64,000 bases of DNA from Bryobacterales bacterium (lineage in GTDB: Bacteria > Acidobacteriota > Terriglobia > Bryobacterales > Bryobacteraceae), in contig CAWJGZ010000001.1 of the NCBI GenBank assembly GCA_963842505.1, positions 2,025,919 to 2,089,918 of the forward strand, in the 5' to 3' direction. A program made the translations under genes and the position numbers. Below the pieces are notes generated by a model that was not told the origin of the DNA, ran no database searches, and worked only from the letters and a program-made list of their open reading frames with translations. This document shows positions 18,438 to 24,259 of the stretch, piece after piece (the first letter of the stretch is position 1; each line of letters starts with the position of its first letter).

Positions 18438-19598
18438 TCATTTCCACGAAATGCTCTCGCCGCCCAGCAGCACCACGTCGAAGATCGCCGCGCTCGTGTG
18501 ATTGAATTCCACCGGCGTCAGTTTGCCGTTGTACGGTTTCAAAACGACCAGGTTTGGCATATCCGCCGGAGTGGGAAAACCGCCGCCCGCCAGAATCGCC
18601 ATTCGCACGGAACTTCCCAGGTTCAGCCTCACATCGTTGCCGTTCACCGTGGCATGCAGGAACGGGTTCACTGCCACCTGCCGGGGGATCACCACGCACA
18701 TCGTGCTCCCGGACTTGTCGCACGTGGCGTTATCTGCCCTCATGGCCTCCGTCAGGCGATCCAACTCGGCGGGTGTGGCGCCGGCGACCACGATTTCCGT
18801 GATGCCGTTATCCGCCGGGTCGGTCTTGTAGAACATCCGGTAGTAGCCTGCCTGCGCCGGAAACTGGAACCAGTTGGTTGCCGGCTTGTCCTCCGGTTCC
18901 TTCTTGCCGGCTATGGTGCGCTCGGCTCCCAGCGGTGTGATGGTGGAACCGGAGCCATCCGGTTTCAGCCGGAAGGCATACCACGCCGTTTCGTAACCGA
19001 TCAGGTTCGGCGAAGCCTTCACGCCAACTTCCAAGCGGGCGCCGCTGCCGGTGACGCTGGTGGTCTCCAGAACGGGCGCATCGGACGCCGTGCCTTCCTT
19101 CAGCACCGGGCTCACCACCTGTAGCTCGTTTTGCGGCCCCAGGTCGATATAACCCTTCGAGACATTGTCGGCATGCAACAGGCGGTACGCCCTGGAAGGA
19201 TCGAACGGCAGCGACTCCAGAATGCGCATCGCCAGGTTCAGACCCGTGTGGGGCGCCAGGCAGCCCTCCGCTTCGGCCCTGGTGGTCCATTCAGCCAGCC
19301 ATCCAACCGGCTGCTTCAGCAGGTTGTCGCGCAGGACGGTGAGCTGCACCTTGTTCTTCCTGCGCGGCAGCACCGTGATGGCATTCGAGTCCGGCGCGCA
19401 GGCCGGCCGCCACTGAAGCACGGCCGCGGTCAGCCTGGCTTGTGCAAGATCGGGCTGTATAACTCCGGGTGGAATCAGGACGCGCCCTTGCGGAACCAGC
19501 CGGTAGGTGAGCGGCTTTTTCGCGGCGCAGCCCGTGAAGCAAAGAATGCCCGCCAGGTTCAATAGCGGCAGAAGCCAGGAGCGGCGTGCACCATTCAT
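18438..19598 (-). CDS. hypothetical lipoprotein, possibly with a C-terminal SLBB/beta-grasp-like segment
   Basis: 386 aa with lipobox LCFTGC|A. The C-terminal VNGNDVRLNLGSSVRMAILAGGG resembles SLBB-domain motifs, but this is weak. Confidence 0.55.
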   Translation of the reverse strand: MNGARRSWLLPLLNLAGILCFTGCAAKKPLTYRLVPQGRVLIPPGVIQPDLAQARLTAAVLQWRPACAPDSNAITVLPRRKNKVQLTVLRDNLLKQPVGWLAEWTTRAEAEGCLAPHTGLNLAMRILESLPFDPSRAYRLLHADNVSKGYIDLGPQNELQVVSPVLKEGTASDAPVLETTSVTGSGARLEVGVKASPNLIGYETAWYAFRLKPDGSGSTITPLGAERTIAGKKEPEDKPATNWFQFPAQAGYYRMFYKTDPADNGITEIVVAGATPAELDRLTEAMRADNATCDKSGSTMCVVIPRQVAVNPFLHATVNGNDVRLNLGSSVRMAILAGGGFPTPADMPNLVVLKPYNGKLTPVEFNHTSAAIFDVVLLGGESISWK

Positions 19599-19625
19599 GC
19601 TAAAAATTTAGCACAAAACGGGTCG

Positions 19626-19645
19626 GACAGGCCTCCTGGCCTGTC
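19626..19645. terminator. GC-rich hairpin GACAGGCC-TCCT-GGCCTGTC (identical to 5056..5075)
   Basis: Exact 20-mer repeat. It lies downstream of the minus-strand stop at 19695..19697 and upstream of the lipoprotein gene start at 19598. Confidence 0.45.
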
Positions 19646-19694
19646 ACAGCCGGGTCACCGGCCCGGCCCAGGCGACCAGCCGTTGCGCCGCCGA

Positions 19695-19844
19695 CTCAAC
19701 GCTCATGCAATTCCTCGCGGCTCCAATGGATCACGCCGCGGATGTGGCGATCTGGCGCGCGCCGGATGCGATCGAGAAACCGCCGTTTGGCCTTCTCAGA
19801 ATCTGGATCTCGATCCATCATTTGGCGAAGGGCTTCGGCCAGGG
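19695..19844 (-). pseudogene. 3' part of a small ORF split by the IS110-family element
   Basis: Minus-strand reading ACC CTG GCC GAA ... CGT TGA gives TLAEALRQMMDRDPDSEKAKRRFLDRIRRAPDRHIRGVIHWSREELHER*. It is in the same codon phase as the 5' part at 21572..21608. Confidence 0.7.
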
Positions 19845-21571
19845 TCAATACTGTTCAGTTAAGTGGGACATCCATGATAAGGGCTTGTCAAGTGCAAACA
19901 GAACTTTCCCTGCACTTGGAAGAGAATCCTGAAGCACCACAGTCCATCCTGCGAATTGCCCGGCGATCTTCGGTTGGCGATCCGTTGCGAGTTGGGCCAA
20001 CGCAGCAGCGTGACCAGACATCCATTTGCGGGAACAGCTCGGGGCCGTCCTCGATGATTGAGTTTGGGTGAACCGGCCGGCCCAGAAACAGACCCTAGGC
20101 CACATGGGGAGGGAAGCCCTCCTTGGTGCAGTCCCACTTACGCCGGGAACGGCCGGTGGATCGCTGACCCATGGTGGTTTTCTTAAGCCGCCTTCTCGAC
20201 CTCCACTTTGGCCCCCGATGGAGCGTGGGGCTGGAACGGCTGGCCGGACTTGTCGACCGCCAACAGATACGCCACCAGCTTCCGCGCCACCGCCAGGGTG
20301 GCCCGGTTGCGATTCCCGCGCTCCACTTCCCGCGCGTGTACCGCCGCCAATTGCGGGTTCCACCGCGGCGCCACCTTCGCCGCTTCGACCAGCACCGTCT
20401 GCAGATGCGCGTTGCGCTGTTTCGAGATCGGTGCCCGCTGCTGGTGGTCGGCCGAGGCCACCTGTGCCGAGGTCAGCCCGCAGTAGCTCACCGCCTTCGC
20501 CACCGAGGAGAAGCGGTGCGGGTTGCCCACTTCCAGAATCCACGTCAGCGCCGTCACCGGCCCCACCCCGCGAATGCTGCCCAGCATCCTCACCCGCTTG
20601 CTCAGCAGTGGATCTTTTTGCAGCCTGGCCAGTAACTGCCGCTGCGTGGCTTCGAACATCTCCATCGCCCCGCGGCTCAGCCGCAGCAGCTCCTTCACCG
20701 ATTCCGGCACCTCTTCCAGGCGGTCCAGCAGTTCCGTGAAGTAGGACTTGCCGTGCAGCCGCTGCTTGTTGTACTCCGCTCCCGTTTCCATCAGCAGGCC
20801 GCTCATCTTGTTCTGCAGGCGCACCGACTGCGCCACCACCAGGTTGCGGTAGCGCAGCAACCGCCGCAACTCGCGGATTTCCACCGGCGCCACGTAGCAC
20901 GCCGGCAGTAAGTTGCACCGCACCAGGTCGGCGATCTTCCGCGCGTCCAGCCGGTCGTTCTTCTTCTTGGAGGCGCCGATGGCCTTCATCATCGCCGGGT
21001 GTCCCATCTGCAGCTCCGCCGCAAAGGGCTTCCACGTGTCGTAGATCCAGCCGCTGAACAGCGTCGCTTCCATCGCGCCCTGCCACGGCTCCTGGCGTCG
21101 CTGGGCCCACTGGCGCAGCGTGTCGTGCGTGGCTCGCAACTTGCCCTCCTCGACAATCTGCCCGTCGGAGGTCTTCACGCAGTAGCTGATGGTTTTCTTG
21201 TGGACATCGAATCCGATATAGTGGTTGACGTTCATGGGGTTCTCCTGTTTGAGGTTTCCGAGCCGGCTGTTCCGAGCCGGTCTCGGCATTGTACCCTTCA
21301 GGAGAACCCTTCGCCATCGCAGCCCTTATACATTCAAACAGGCCATCGCTTTTCGTGGCCTGTTGCAGAGGGCCGTCGGCCCGCGAGATTTCATGAAAGA
21401 GTGCGCCGAGCCTCGCTGCTCGTGGAGCGGGCCTCCGGCCCGCAACGCCGGCTTTCCAGCCGGCGCCCCGCATTTTCGACCCCGTCATGCTTAGCTGAAG
21501 AGGGCGCTTGACAGACGACTAAAACCGATCGTCTGTCCCACCCCCGACGCCGGCTTAAGTGAACAGCATTG
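19845..21571 (-). mobile_element. IS110-family insertion sequence (1727 bp)
   Basis: The ends CAATACTGTTCAGTTAAG (19845..19862) and CTTAAGTGAACAGCATTG (21554..21571) are inverted repeats (16/18). They are flanked by direct copies CGGCCAGGGT (19835..19844) and CGGCTAGGGT (21572..21581). The element has a single DEDD-type transposase gene and long non-coding arms on both sides. Confidence 0.8.
20183..21235 (-). CDS. IS110-family (DEDD) transposase
   Basis: 350 aa from the ATG at 21235, with AGGAG upstream. The N-terminus is MNVNHYIGFDVHKKT (IS110 N-terminal DEDD domain). The C-terminal part has L.SIRGVGPVTA and SYCGLTS...SADHQQRAPISKQRNAHLQ (Transposase_20-like). Confidence 0.9.
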   Translation of the reverse strand: MNVNHYIGFDVHKKTISYCVKTSDGQIVEEGKLRATHDTLRQWAQRRQEPWQGAMEATLFSGWIYDTWKPFAAELQMGHPAMMKAIGASKKKNDRLDARKIADLVRCNLLPACYVAPVEIRELRRLLRYRNLVVAQSVRLQNKMSGLLMETGAEYNKQRLHGKSYFTELLDRLEEVPESVKELLRLSRGAMEMFEATQRQLLARLQKDPLLSKRVRMLGSIRGVGPVTALTWILEVGNPHRFSSVAKAVSYCGLTSAQVASADHQQRAPISKQRNAHLQTVLVEAAKVAPRWNPQLAAVHAREVERGNRNRATLAVARKLVAYLLAVDKSGQPFQPHAPSGAKVEVEKAA

Positions 21572-21608
21572 CGGCTAGGGTGAGGTTCTTGCGATCCGCC
21601 ATCTTCAT
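21572..21608 (-). pseudogene. 5' part of the small ORF split by the IS110-family element
   Basis: The minus strand reads ATG AAG ATG GCG GAT CGC AAG AAC CTC ACC CTA GCC and then runs into the IS end, stopping after AMLFT. Confidence 0.65.
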
Positions 21609-21817
21609 GCAATTCAGTCTCTCACGGAAACGCCTGGCCTTGGCCCCAGCCTCCGCATTTCCGGCATTACCGCGGTGGGCGATCCCCAAGAAGCGCAAGT
21701 GGCGCTTCGGGCGCTCTTGTGGCGCACGCACTCGTGCGTGCCGTGTCCCCACTCTTGGGGACACGCAGCGGGCTCGACTTCGGATTTTCAGAGTCTAATA
21801 ATAATGAAGTTAAGGAA

Positions 21818-24259
21818 ATGGCCGTTTTTCTGGACGACCTCCGTTTTGGGATGCGCATGCTGCGCAAGAGCCCCGGGCTGACGGTGGCGGCAGTGGCGAC
21901 TCTGGCACTCGGAATCGGCGCGACCAGCGCGGTCTTCAGCATCGTGAATGCGGCCATGTTGCGGCCGCTGCCCTATCCCGATCCGCAGCAGCTGGTGGTG
22001 ATATGGGGAACGGACAACCGCCAGGTCGGGTCGAGCCTGGCGCCCATTGCCAACAGGCTGCCACGCAACAAGACCATGACCCGCACCGACGTGGCCGAGC
22101 GGTGGCGCGCCGTGAGCCGGTCGCTCGAGCACATCGTGTGGTATCGCAGTTGGAAGTTCAGCCTGACCAGCGGCGGCGAGCCGGAGCGGGTCAACTTGGG
22201 GTTGGTTTCCGCCGGGTTCTTCGAGTGCCTGGGTGTGTCGCCGCTGATGGGACGCGGCTTTCAAGCTTCCGAGATCGCTCCGGGTAACGATCAGGTGGCG
22301 TTGATTTCGAGCGGGTTGTGGCGGCGGCGATTTGGCGGCGACCCGCAAATCGTCGGCAAGAGCATCGTGCTCGATGGCATCCCGTACAACGTGATCGGAG
22401 TGATGCCGGAGAGCTTCCAGGCCTTCGTGCCGTATATGTTCGACAAGGTGGATGTGTGGGCGCCCGTCAGCCGCACATTTGAGGCAAAGCGGCAGTGGGA
22501 AGTGGTGTCGGCGGTGGGGCGTTTGAAGCCAGGCGTGACCTTGCCGCAGGCGCAGGCCGAAATGGACGCCGTGTGCAAGCGGCTGGAACCCGAAGGCCGC
22601 GCGTTCCGTGGGCACGGCGTGAACCTGGTGCCGCTGGACCGTGAAATGGTGTCGGGCGTGCGTAGCGCGCTGCTGATTTTGTGCGGCGCGGTAGGGTGCA
22701 TTCTGCTGATCGCGTGCGCCAACCTGGCGGGTCTGATGCTGGCGCGCACGTCGGCGCGGCAAAAGGAGATCGCCGTGCGCACGGTAATGGGTGCCGGGCG
22801 CGGGCGGCTGGTGCGGCAGTTGATCACGGAGTGCATGCTGCTGGCGGCGATTGGCGGCGCGCTGGGGCTGGCGCTCTCCATCTGGATTGCACGTGCCATC
22901 GTGTTGCTGCATCCGCCAGGGATTCCGCGGATGGACCAGGTGCGGCCGGATGCGGCGGTCTTTCTGTTTGGCCTTGCCATTTCGCTGCTCTCCGGCGTGC
23001 TGTTCGCGCTCATTCCGGCGCTGCAATTTTCGCGCGGCGATGTGAATGAAGTGATCAAGCGAGGCGCGGCTCACGGCGGCCGGGCCAATCGCATGCTGGC
23101 GCCGCGCAGTCTGCTGGTGGTGGCGGAGATCGGCCTGGCGCTCGTGCTGCTGATCGGCGCCAGCCTGCTGCTGCGCAGCTTCGCCCTGTTGAAGGCGGTG
23201 GACCCCGGCTTCCAGCCGGAGCGGCTGCTGACCATGACCATTCCGCTGCCGAGCGAGGTGTACCGCGAGGGGCCGCAGCAGGCGGAGTTCGCCGCGCAAC
23301 TGCTGGAGCGGGTCCGCATGGTTCCCGGAGTGCAATCGGCCGCGGTGAGCAACTCGCTGCCCTTGGCCACTAGCTTCATCATGAGCGCGAACGTCGAAAT
23401 CGAGGGCCGACAACTCTCGGCCACGGAATCGTCGGTGGGCGTGCGCGCGGTGACGGCGGGGTACTTTCGTACCATGGGGATCGCGGTAGTGCGGGGCCGC
23501 GAGTTCGCGGAGGCCGACGAAGGGCGGAAAGACGGCGTGATCGTCAATCAGACCACGGCGCGCCACTTTTGGCCCGGCGAGGATCCCATGGGGCGGCAAA
23601 TTTCGATGGAGAAAGAAAAACCCAGGACGGTGATCGGCATGGTGGCGGACGTGAAGAACCTGGGCTTGGATGCCGGCACGGGCACCGAGATTTACGTGCC
23701 GTTCGTGGAAGAGCCGACAACCTACGTCGGTCTCGCAGTGCGCACCGTGGGCGAGCCGGGTGGCGCGGTGGCCGCGGTCCGCGGCATCGTGCGCGGCCTG
23801 GACCGCAACCAGGCGGTGGACAACGTGGCCAGCATGCGCGAAGTTCTGGGCGAATACGTGGAGCGGCCGCGGTTCAACCTGGTGCTGCTGGGTTCGTTCG
23901 CGGCACTCGCACTGGCGCTGGCGATGGTCGGCGTCTACGGAGTGGTGGCCTATTCGGTGTCGCAGCGGACGCATGAGATCGGGATTCGCATGGCGCTCGG
24001 CGCGGAGAAAGGAGTGGTCTTGCGGATGATCGTGGGCCACGGCGCGACGCTGGCGGGCGCCGGTATCACGCTGGGGCTGGCCGGATCGTACGCGGCGACG
24101 CGGGTCCTGGGGAGCATGTTGTACGGCGTCACCGCGCATGATGCGGCCACGTTCACCGCGGTGCCGGTCCTGCTTCTGGCGGTATGTCTGGCGGCCAGCT
24201 ACATTCCGGCGCGGCGTGCAGCCAGGGTGGATCCGATGGTCGCGCTGCGGCACGAGTAA
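21818..24259 (+). CDS. ADOP / MacB-like FtsX-family permease (complete)
   Basis: Start at the internal ATG at 21818 (MAVFLDDLRFGMRMLRKSPGLTVAAVATLALGIGATSAVFSIVNAAMLRPLPYPDP). There are two FtsX-type 4-TM modules, each preceded by a MacB_PCD-like region (VSAGFFECLGVSPLMGRGF; VTAGYFRTMGIAVVRGREF). The C-terminal ARRAARVDPMVALRHE is typical. Confidence 0.9.
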   Translation: MAVFLDDLRFGMRMLRKSPGLTVAAVATLALGIGATSAVFSIVNAAMLRPLPYPDPQQLVVIWGTDNRQVGSSLAPIANRLPRNKTMTRTDVAERWRAVSRSLEHIVWYRSWKFSLTSGGEPERVNLGLVSAGFFECLGVSPLMGRGFQASEIAPGNDQVALISSGLWRRRFGGDPQIVGKSIVLDGIPYNVIGVMPESFQAFVPYMFDKVDVWAPVSRTFEAKRQWEVVSAVGRLKPGVTLPQAQAEMDAVCKRLEPEGRAFRGHGVNLVPLDREMVSGVRSALLILCGAVGCILLIACANLAGLMLARTSARQKEIAVRTVMGAGRGRLVRQLITECMLLAAIGGALGLALSIWIARAIVLLHPPGIPRMDQVRPDAAVFLFGLAISLLSGVLFALIPALQFSRGDVNEVIKRGAAHGGRANRMLAPRSLLVVAEIGLALVLLIGASLLLRSFALLKAVDPGFQPERLLTMTIPLPSEVYREGPQQAEFAAQLLERVRMVPGVQSAAVSNSLPLATSFIMSANVEIEGRQLSATESSVGVRAVTAGYFRTMGIAVVRGREFAEADEGRKDGVIVNQTTARHFWPGEDPMGRQISMEKEKPRTVIGMVADVKNLGLDAGTGTEIYVPFVEEPTTYVGLAVRTVGEPGGAVAAVRGIVRGLDRNQAVDNVASMREVLGEYVERPRFNLVLLGSFAALALALAMVGVYGVVAYSVSQRTHEIGIRMALGAEKGVVLRMIVGHGATLAGAGITLGLAGSYAATRVLGSMLYGVTAHDAATFTAVPVLLLAVCLAASYIPARRAARVDPMVALRHE

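Follow-up and report, generated by a model that had tools for sequence, protein, structure and literature searches.

A nested insertion in a Bryobacterales genome: a decayed antitoxin gene, a miniature element and a predicted RNA-guided IS1111-type insertion sequence

A 64,000-nt stretch of a Bryobacterales bacterium (GCA_963842505.1, contig CAWJGZ010000001.1, positions 2,025,919-2,089,918 of the forward strand), referred to here as the window, contains a small open reading frame (ORF) interrupted by a 1726-bp insert, which an initial annotation had taken for one IS110-family insertion sequence (IS) bounded by its own terminal inverted repeats (TIRs). Our results make it highly probable that the locus consists of three layers: a decayed ORF, a miniature inverted-repeat transposable element (MITE) that split it, and an RNA-guided IS1111-type element of the IS110 family lying inside the MITE. 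As such, there is nothing unusual about the nesting at this locus, in which both mobile elements are of known kinds. Its anatomy, the copies of its parts, the empty site, the covariation within the RNA fold and the covariation between guides and flanks were all observed directly.

The miniature element and its terminal repeats

On the plus strand the insert opens with the left arm of the MITE (19846..19870), composed of an 18-bp TIR (CAATACTGTTCAGTTAAG, 19846-19863) and of GTGGGACA, the final three bases of which are the ACA core shared with the IS. The IS follows on the minus strand, and the 234-bp right arm of the MITE (21338..21571, plus strand) then runs from the ACA core through a target hairpin (ACAGGCCA...TGGCCTGT) to the closing 18-bp TIR (CTTAAGTGAACAGCATTG, 21554-21571). 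This right repeat and the adjoining flank CGGCTAGGGT (21572-21581) are exactly where the initial annotation had placed them; on the left, both sequences are present as described but their coordinates had been one base low, the repeat lying at 19846-19863 rather than 19845-19862 and the flank CGGCCAGGGT at 19836-19845. The inverted repeats are complementary at 16/18 positions and the flanks match at 9/10, as had been reported. The 18-bp end features cannot be put down to chance, because they recur 36 times in the genome and the reversed control pattern does not occur in it at all.

The attribution of these repeats, and of the 9-10 bp flank repeat, to an IS110 element has to be withdrawn, since they belong to a separate element of 134-256 bp. 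When the genome was searched with its own 1726-bp insert, the parts of the insert differed in copy number, the middle being found 11 times and the last 234 bp approximately 25-100 times, and the first 25 bp adjoined the last part in short elements. Such a short element measures 134 bp, beginning with the left repeat and GTGGGACAGGCCATCGCC... and ending in the right repeat. The census of the window's genome gave 18 MITE copies with both ends: 11 of 134-136 bp, three of 256 bp with an extra 122 bp, three with an IS110-family element and one with an unrelated IS4-family element, 14/18 being free of any IS. Most of them carry a 10-bp flank duplication of their own (identical at 10/10 positions in eight copies and at 9/10 in four; consensus nnnCTAGnnn), and therefore the 9/10 flank repeat of the window is the target-site duplication of the MITE.

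The same 18-bp ends were present in 97 of the 301 sampled genomes of the family, in which the reversed control pattern had nearly no matches. In other genera, elements of 1453 bp and 1741 bp with CAATACTGTTCACTTAAC ends and 10-bp CTAG-centred duplications encode an IS4-family transposase (NF033592, 232-244 bits), and the ends of the MITE are identical to those of such IS4-family elements (L137-L139) at 16-17 of the 18 positions, the symmetric CTAG-centred 10-bp duplication being shared as well. The MITE is short, lacks a transposase, is present in many copies and shares its TIRs and duplications with full-length IS, which are the characteristics of an IS4-family MITE; judging from these similarities, it is a non-autonomous derivative of an IS4-family element. 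In its symmetry, the CTAG-centred duplication recalls the 9-bp target of IS10, which is likewise symmetric. A search of the window's genome for the cognate IS4-family transposase yielded no close homologue (best match 26% identical), so that the MITE is an orphan here, and a search of the same genome for a full-length partner found none, all paired ends within 8 kb being MITEs. The 1849-bp MITE copy at C1:1070874-1072722 was considered as such a partner and rejected, as it holds an unrelated IS4-family element with different ends. That copy (L041) is a long-form MITE broken inside its 122-bp insert by the IS4-family element, which encodes a 373-aa DDE_Tnp_1 product, has ends CATAAGCGCTAAGATAA... 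and also abuts the IS copy at C1:2284112.

The 122 bp that set the 256-bp form apart from the 134-bp form occupy 21364..21485 of the window (plus strand) and contain many hairpins resembling repetitive extragenic palindromic (REP) sequences. Their position mirrors that of the IS target exactly: on the plus strand they follow GGCCTGT, at the opposite foot of the hairpin that serves as that target. Their inner part (approximately 21420-21460) has roughly 100 copies in the genome. It is possible that this 122-bp insert is a further small repeat homing to the same hairpin.

The split antitoxin remnant and its empty site

The interrupted ORF lies on the minus strand. Its 5' piece (21572..21608, with the ATG at 21608) takes in the right copy of the duplication and its 3' piece (19696..19845) the left one. 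As first described, the reading frame MKMADRKNLTLAAMLFT* enters the insert and stops after AMLFT, and joining 21582-21608 to 19696-19845 gives exactly the 58-aa product that had been quoted. The rebuilt empty site also exists as a real junction in other DNA: a 1648-nt peat-metagenome contig joins 19840 to 21577, with sides of 341 and 171 nt and 10 differences in total, and a soil-metagenome contig has the same 19840-to-21577 junction. The 1736 bp that these contigs skip correspond to the 1726-bp insert plus one 10-bp flank copy. In a freshwater-sediment metagenome contig the occupied left junction was found with zero differences. Four intact homologues of the 58-aa ORF, from metagenomes, are 74-91% identical to the rejoined product and have a common ...NxTLAEA... 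junction. Together with the empty-site contig, they bear out the proposal of a split gene whose site can be rebuilt in frame.

The rejoined product is the truncated remnant of a ribbon-helix-helix (RHH) antitoxin from an RHH+PIN pair. In four species of the same genus the orthologue has 83 aa and an RHH_1 domain, and overlaps a downstream gene for a 136-aa PIN-domain protein in a VapBC-like arrangement (L032:1103-1754, and also L033-L035, compared with window 19599-19845). Since the window version is missing 25 residues of the RHH fold and the entire PIN gene, the MITE struck an antitoxin remnant that had already decayed. Forms of 58 aa with the same deletion junction recur across several metagenome contigs.

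Just 3' of the ORF, at window 19623-19650, there is an unoccupied REP-like hairpin (GGACAGGCC-TCCT-GGCCTGTC) that resembles the IS target, but is followed on the relevant strand by CCGAC instead of CCCAC. An open frame of 547 codons on the minus strand (window 19845-21488) spans the IS in a frame other than that of the transposase; it is an artefact of GC-rich sequence, which gene callers could pick up.

The insertion sequence and its predicted guide RNA

The body of the IS, 1467 bp in minus orientation, covers 19871..21337 of the window and is bordered by TGT, read as ACA in plus orientation, at 19868-19870 and 21338-21340. In the orientation of the transposase, all 11 copies in the genome read ...CGAT(GGCC/CGTC)TGT up to the left junction, TTGAATGTATAAGG ... 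CCTTATCATGGA within the element, and TGTCC(C/T)AC... after the right junction. Subfamily A (1467 bp) comprises two identical copies, including that of the window, subfamily B has five copies of 1677-1678 bp and subfamily C four of 1671 bp. The second A copy, at C4:696264-697730, is 100% identical to the one in the window, and like the nine related copies it ends in TTGAATG... and ...ATCATGGA, true ends that have no terminal inverted repeats. TGT is found at both junctions of the IS and once in empty sites, with no duplication beyond this shared core.

These termini decide the standing of the single-element interpretation, in which a 1726-bp IS110-family element would possess 18-bp TIRs of its own and make a 9-10 bp duplication. 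It is true that at this locus, taken alone, the repeats and the flank repeat bracket a transposase gene; elsewhere, however, the same ends and duplications bracket elements of 134-256 bp without a transposase, and in other genera they bracket IS4-family transposase genes. Furthermore, no 18-bp repeat is found near the ends of the related genomic IS copies, and three of these are reversed, at the other hairpin of the MITE. The different ends of the other copies in effect contradict the idea of an IS with TIRs and, because IS-free copies of the MITE and MITE-free copies of the IS both exist, the single-element interpretation is refuted and retains next to no probability. The layout, which had been regarded as atypical for the family, is that of a typical IS1111-type IS.

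The IS targets the foot of a REP-like hairpin on its 3' side (gACAGGCCA-loop-TGGCCTGT), after which comes CCCAC. In the window, the IS sits 25 bp inside the MITE, at ...GGCC-TGT-CCCACTTA..., and the MITE holds two such hairpin sites, mutually inverted. Of these sites, the one by the left repeat is taken by the two A copies and the one by the right repeat by four copies of B and C, only one of these four being still within a MITE with both ends, while the remaining five copies occupy similar hairpins outside any such MITE. Because the identical A copies lie in different forms of the MITE, one long and one short, with different duplications, the IS must have moved on its own. All 11 genomic copies and 59 relatives are inserted between ...CTGT and TGTCC..., in line with the sequence-specific targeting that the initial annotation had suggested. 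The window's genome contains 108 CTGTCCCAC sites, and five exact subfamily A targets in it are unoccupied.

The transposase gene (20183..21235, minus strand) encodes 350 aa, begins MNVNHYIGFDVH, and is preceded by 102 nt and followed by 312 nt of non-coding sequence. An upstream ATG at 21289, which would give 368 aa, was rejected as the start, since subfamily C lacks it while MNVNHY and the AGGAG box are conserved. That the protein is an IS110-family transposase, as originally claimed, is supported by matches to DEDD_Tnp_IS110 (PF01548, E=4e-18), to Transposase_20 (PF02371, E=8e-19) and to NCBIfam NF033542 ("IS110 family RNA-guided transposase"), with 187.6 bits against a cut-off of 140. It also matches the PDB entries of the ISCro4 and IS621 transposases, the match lying in the C-terminal domain, and inspection by eye located the DEDD residues in GFDVH (D), AMEAT (E) and DRLD. 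Near the ends of the element there are 9-bp subterminal inverted repeats, within the 7-17 bp range of IS1111 elements, the left-end copy (ATAAGGGCT, 21321..21329, minus strand) 8 nt and the right-end copy (AGCCCTTAT, 19877..19885, minus strand) 6 nt from the IS end. The C-terminal motif is GLTSAQVASA, or GL(T/S)(A/S)A...S-A across the clade, in which the Ser of the IS1111 motif GL-P----S(T)G is kept and the Pro and Gly are replaced; an occasional T-A has been described in the IS1111 motif (PMC11187229). The domains of the protein and its size, the subterminal repeats and the lengths of the two non-coding stretches mark the element as a probable member of the IS110 family of IS1111 type.

When genome contigs were scanned, 70 related loci were identified in metagenome-assembled genomes of Acidobacteriota (51-85% amino-acid identity), of which 59 keep a full homologue of the last approximately 296 nt of the element, with the same kind of junctions. 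The first approximately 195 nt of this region were aligned for 45 distinct sequences (alignment A1). The consensus fold has 38 pairs in seven helices, 17 of them with compensatory changes; paired cells amount to 97.3%, compared with 32-47% when the partners are slid, and none of 500 shuffles reached any of the observed measures. A closing stem and two further stems lead to an internal loop capped by a hairpin, and the corresponding RNA core in the window (19972..20166, minus strand) also has a second loop and a terminal hairpin. The 5' side of the internal loop is GUAAGUGGGAC (20131..20141), which at 10/11 positions is the complement of the right flank as read on the top strand, GTCCCACTTAA, and the 3' side of the loop is GGGUCUGU (20088..20095), in the same sense as the left flank and core, TGGCCTGT; these are the predicted target guides. 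The predicted donor guides, in the second loop, are ACUCAAUC (20056..20063), the UCAA of which is the complement of TTGA, the bases that open the left end, and AUGGAUGU (20018..20025), which repeats the final 5 nt of the right end together with the TGT core, all four guides being on the minus strand. The 3' non-coding region is thus predicted, from its fold and from the covariation of guides with flanks, to encode a seekRNA or bridge RNA, which would be transcribed and bound by the transposase.

The guide positions vary and the adjacent stems are conserved. Subfamily B has the target guide GGGUGGGAC and is located at ...GTCCCACCC, and subfamily C has UCGUCUGU and always follows CGTCTGT. In four relatives (L095, L071, L088 and L077) the guides are very different and agree, on either side, with the flanks of the element concerned, divergent flanks being CCAATGT / GGCCGGTTT in L095 and CCCTTGT in L088. 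With one insertion taken per distinct guide, the seven variable nucleotides of the 5' target guide matched their own right flank at 139/231 positions, against 77 +/- 6.8 after shuffling, and the five variable nucleotides of the 3' target guide matched their own left flank at 46/55, against 23.4 +/- 3.4, neither value being reached in 20,000 shuffles; kinship among the elements makes these figures look more significant than they are, although the clearest cases are changes that arose independently on each side. The donor guides change along with the core and with the base that opens the left end: a clade with left end ATGA has UCAUAC instead of UCAAUC and, in L118, with core TGA, the 3' donor guide reads AUGGAUGA.

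Some further features of this region were observed. Subfamilies B and C (e.g., C4:1068427-1070103) have approximately 210 extra nt, including a long GC-rich hairpin, between the transposase stop and the guide-RNA domain. The subfamily C copy at C1:344500-346170 has the donor guide AUGGAUAU in place of AUGGAUGU, a change that might disable it. The 3' target guide is followed by a base (giving CUGU-U or, in one clade, CUGU-A; A1 columns 83-86, window approximately 20085-20087) that varies in step with the base at the start of the left end (T or A) and that may represent a handshake-type contact from the target loop to the donor, not yet described for IS1111 elements.

It could be argued that the conserved 3' region is not a guide RNA at all, and that the protein reads the hairpin while the matches to the flanks reflect shared ancestry. 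The conservation across the clade of the target core, CTGT followed by CC, and of its hairpin context would fit this explanation, as would the labels that relatives share, by which the shuffle tests overstate independence. However, the guide positions track the flanks of each individual element, clearly so in L095, L088 and L071, the donor segments follow changes in the left end and in the core, and RNA guidance has been shown experimentally for the family (PMC11187229, PMC11208160). We consider a guide-free system highly improbable. Under the RNA-guided interpretation, the DEDD transposase would be programmed by the approximately 195-nt RNA from the 3' non-coding region, the two guides of the internal loop, overlapping at the core, would each pair with one flank of the target, on opposite strands, those of the second loop would match the right and left ends of the element itself, and all four together would unite the target with the excised, circular element for recombination. 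In such a circle the joined ends would read ...ATCATGGA-TGT-TTGAATG..., a junction that would also form a predicted promoter, TTGACA-18 nt-TTGAAT, with a TGn extension.

As for the sequence of events, the MITE, in its 256-bp long form, would have inserted into codons 10-13 of the antitoxin remnant, making the 10-bp target-site duplication, and the IS would then have inserted inside it, most likely after its arrival. This order, MITE first and IS second, has to be deduced from other copies because the search of metagenome contigs returned no MITE-only contig at this locus. The metagenome joints of MITE-only type and of the short and long forms have anchoring sides of only 21-26 nt, those of MITE-only type 21-25 nt, and are not assignable to this locus. 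Alternatively, the IS may already have been in the MITE, and the 1726-bp composite may have been moved as a unit by an IS4-family transposase acting in trans. The intact ends of the MITE and its 10-bp duplication are compatible with such a transfer, as are the empty-site contigs, which lack both layers, and the missing MITE-only intermediate. On the other hand, the presence of identical IS copies in the long and the short MITE means that the IS moved alone at least once, the window's genome offers no close homologue of the IS4-family transposase that would be needed, and most copies of the MITE contain no IS. The transfer of a ready-made composite is, in our view, unlikely.

Besides the missing MITE-only contig, a few observations weigh against the proposed three layers and RNA guidance. 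There is a one-base difference (C/T) between the copies of the duplication. In the IS copy of the window, only 6/8 positions of the 3' target guide agree with the left flank, or 7/8 when a single G.U pair is counted, and, in the main clade, the 5' donor guide does not pair with the third base of the core. Rfam 15 gave no match to either the guide RNA or the MITE in 19000-22500 at E<=1, the sole match in that interval being a chance, miRNA-like one inside the transposase gene. Regarding the mismatch in the duplication (window 19840 versus 21576), the left copy reads CCAGG, which is the allele of the empty site, and the right copy CTAGG. The sequence of the empty site is CGGCCAGGGT, from which it follows that the T of the right copy, CGGCTAGGGT, probably arose after the insertion. 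If one may speculate, deamination of a cytosine with Dcm-type methylation would be expected to turn CCAGG into CTAGG.

Relation to known systems and significance

One of the closest parallels is the IS1111 group with seekRNA (ISEc11, ISPa11, ISKpn4 and ISPst6; Siddiquee et al. 2024, PMC11187229), with which the element of the window shares a DEDD transposase in the 330-350 aa range, subterminal inverted repeats and a long non-coding region 3' of the transposase gene. In the seekRNAs of that group the guide matching the top strand is 5' of the one matching the bottom strand and the two overlap in the target (PMC11187229), and here too the target guides come in that order, with the overlap at the core. 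ISPa11 also targets REP hairpins (PMC11187229), and the features of the group have likewise been defined by Durrant et al. (2024, PMC11208160). The element described herein differs from the group in its target, in its 3-nt TGT core, in its Acidobacteriota host and, throughout its clade, in having the C-terminal GL(T/S)(A/S)A...S-A rather than GL-P----S/T-G. Its predicted RNA also resembles the IS621/IS110 bridge RNA (Durrant et al. 2024, PMC11208160; Hiraizumi et al. 2024, PMC11208158) in having a target and a donor loop, each reading both strands around a shared core. In IS621, however, the RNA comes from the left end, upstream of the transposase gene, and the core is CT, whereas here it would come from the right end, the location predicted for 93% of IS1111 elements (Durrant et al., PMC11208160).

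The choice of a palindromic target has precedents as well. ISPpu9 of Pseudomonas putida (PMC12288879) is an IS110-family element found in repetitive palindromic sequences, with a small-RNA gene 3' of its transposase gene, and insertion of IS into REP sequences is also reported by Tobes and Pareja (2006, PMC1525189). Unlike in these cases, the target hairpin of the window is carried twice, in inverted orientation, by a MITE of IS4 origin, in addition to other repeats. IS4321/IS5075, of the IS1111 family, are reported to home to a fixed position in the end region of another transposable element (Partridge and Hall 2003, PMC219399), as does the IS in the window; their target is the 38-bp TIR of Tn21-family transposons, whereas the IS described here targets a hairpin 25 bp inside the MITE, just past its 18-bp TIR. 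The MITE, in turn, differs from IS4-family IS in having neither a transposase nor a cognate full-length partner in the window's genome.

A naive reading of this locus, as an IS110 element with TIRs and a long duplication, would conflict with the mechanism of the family, and our results correct what was a plausible misannotation. The correct boundaries matter for annotation, for entries of the ISfinder type and for the reading of guide RNAs from the ends of an element. The homing of RNA-guided IS to repeat hairpins, those of MITEs included, is already in the literature. It may be, although we regard the idea as doubtful, that the MITE serves as a mobile landing pad with its two inverted target hairpins, each transposition seeding safe sites for the IS, and that a nested IS could gain a second, guide-independent way of spreading through the IS4 transposase. 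On a single conserved scaffold with TGT as its core, this acidobacterial clade has approximately 33 target guides that were reprogrammed in nature. The 11 genomic copies and the 59 relatives constitute a natural set of co-varying guides and targets on an IS1111-type scaffold from the Acidobacteriota, and this set could help to choose or engineer bridge RNA or seekRNA recombinases.

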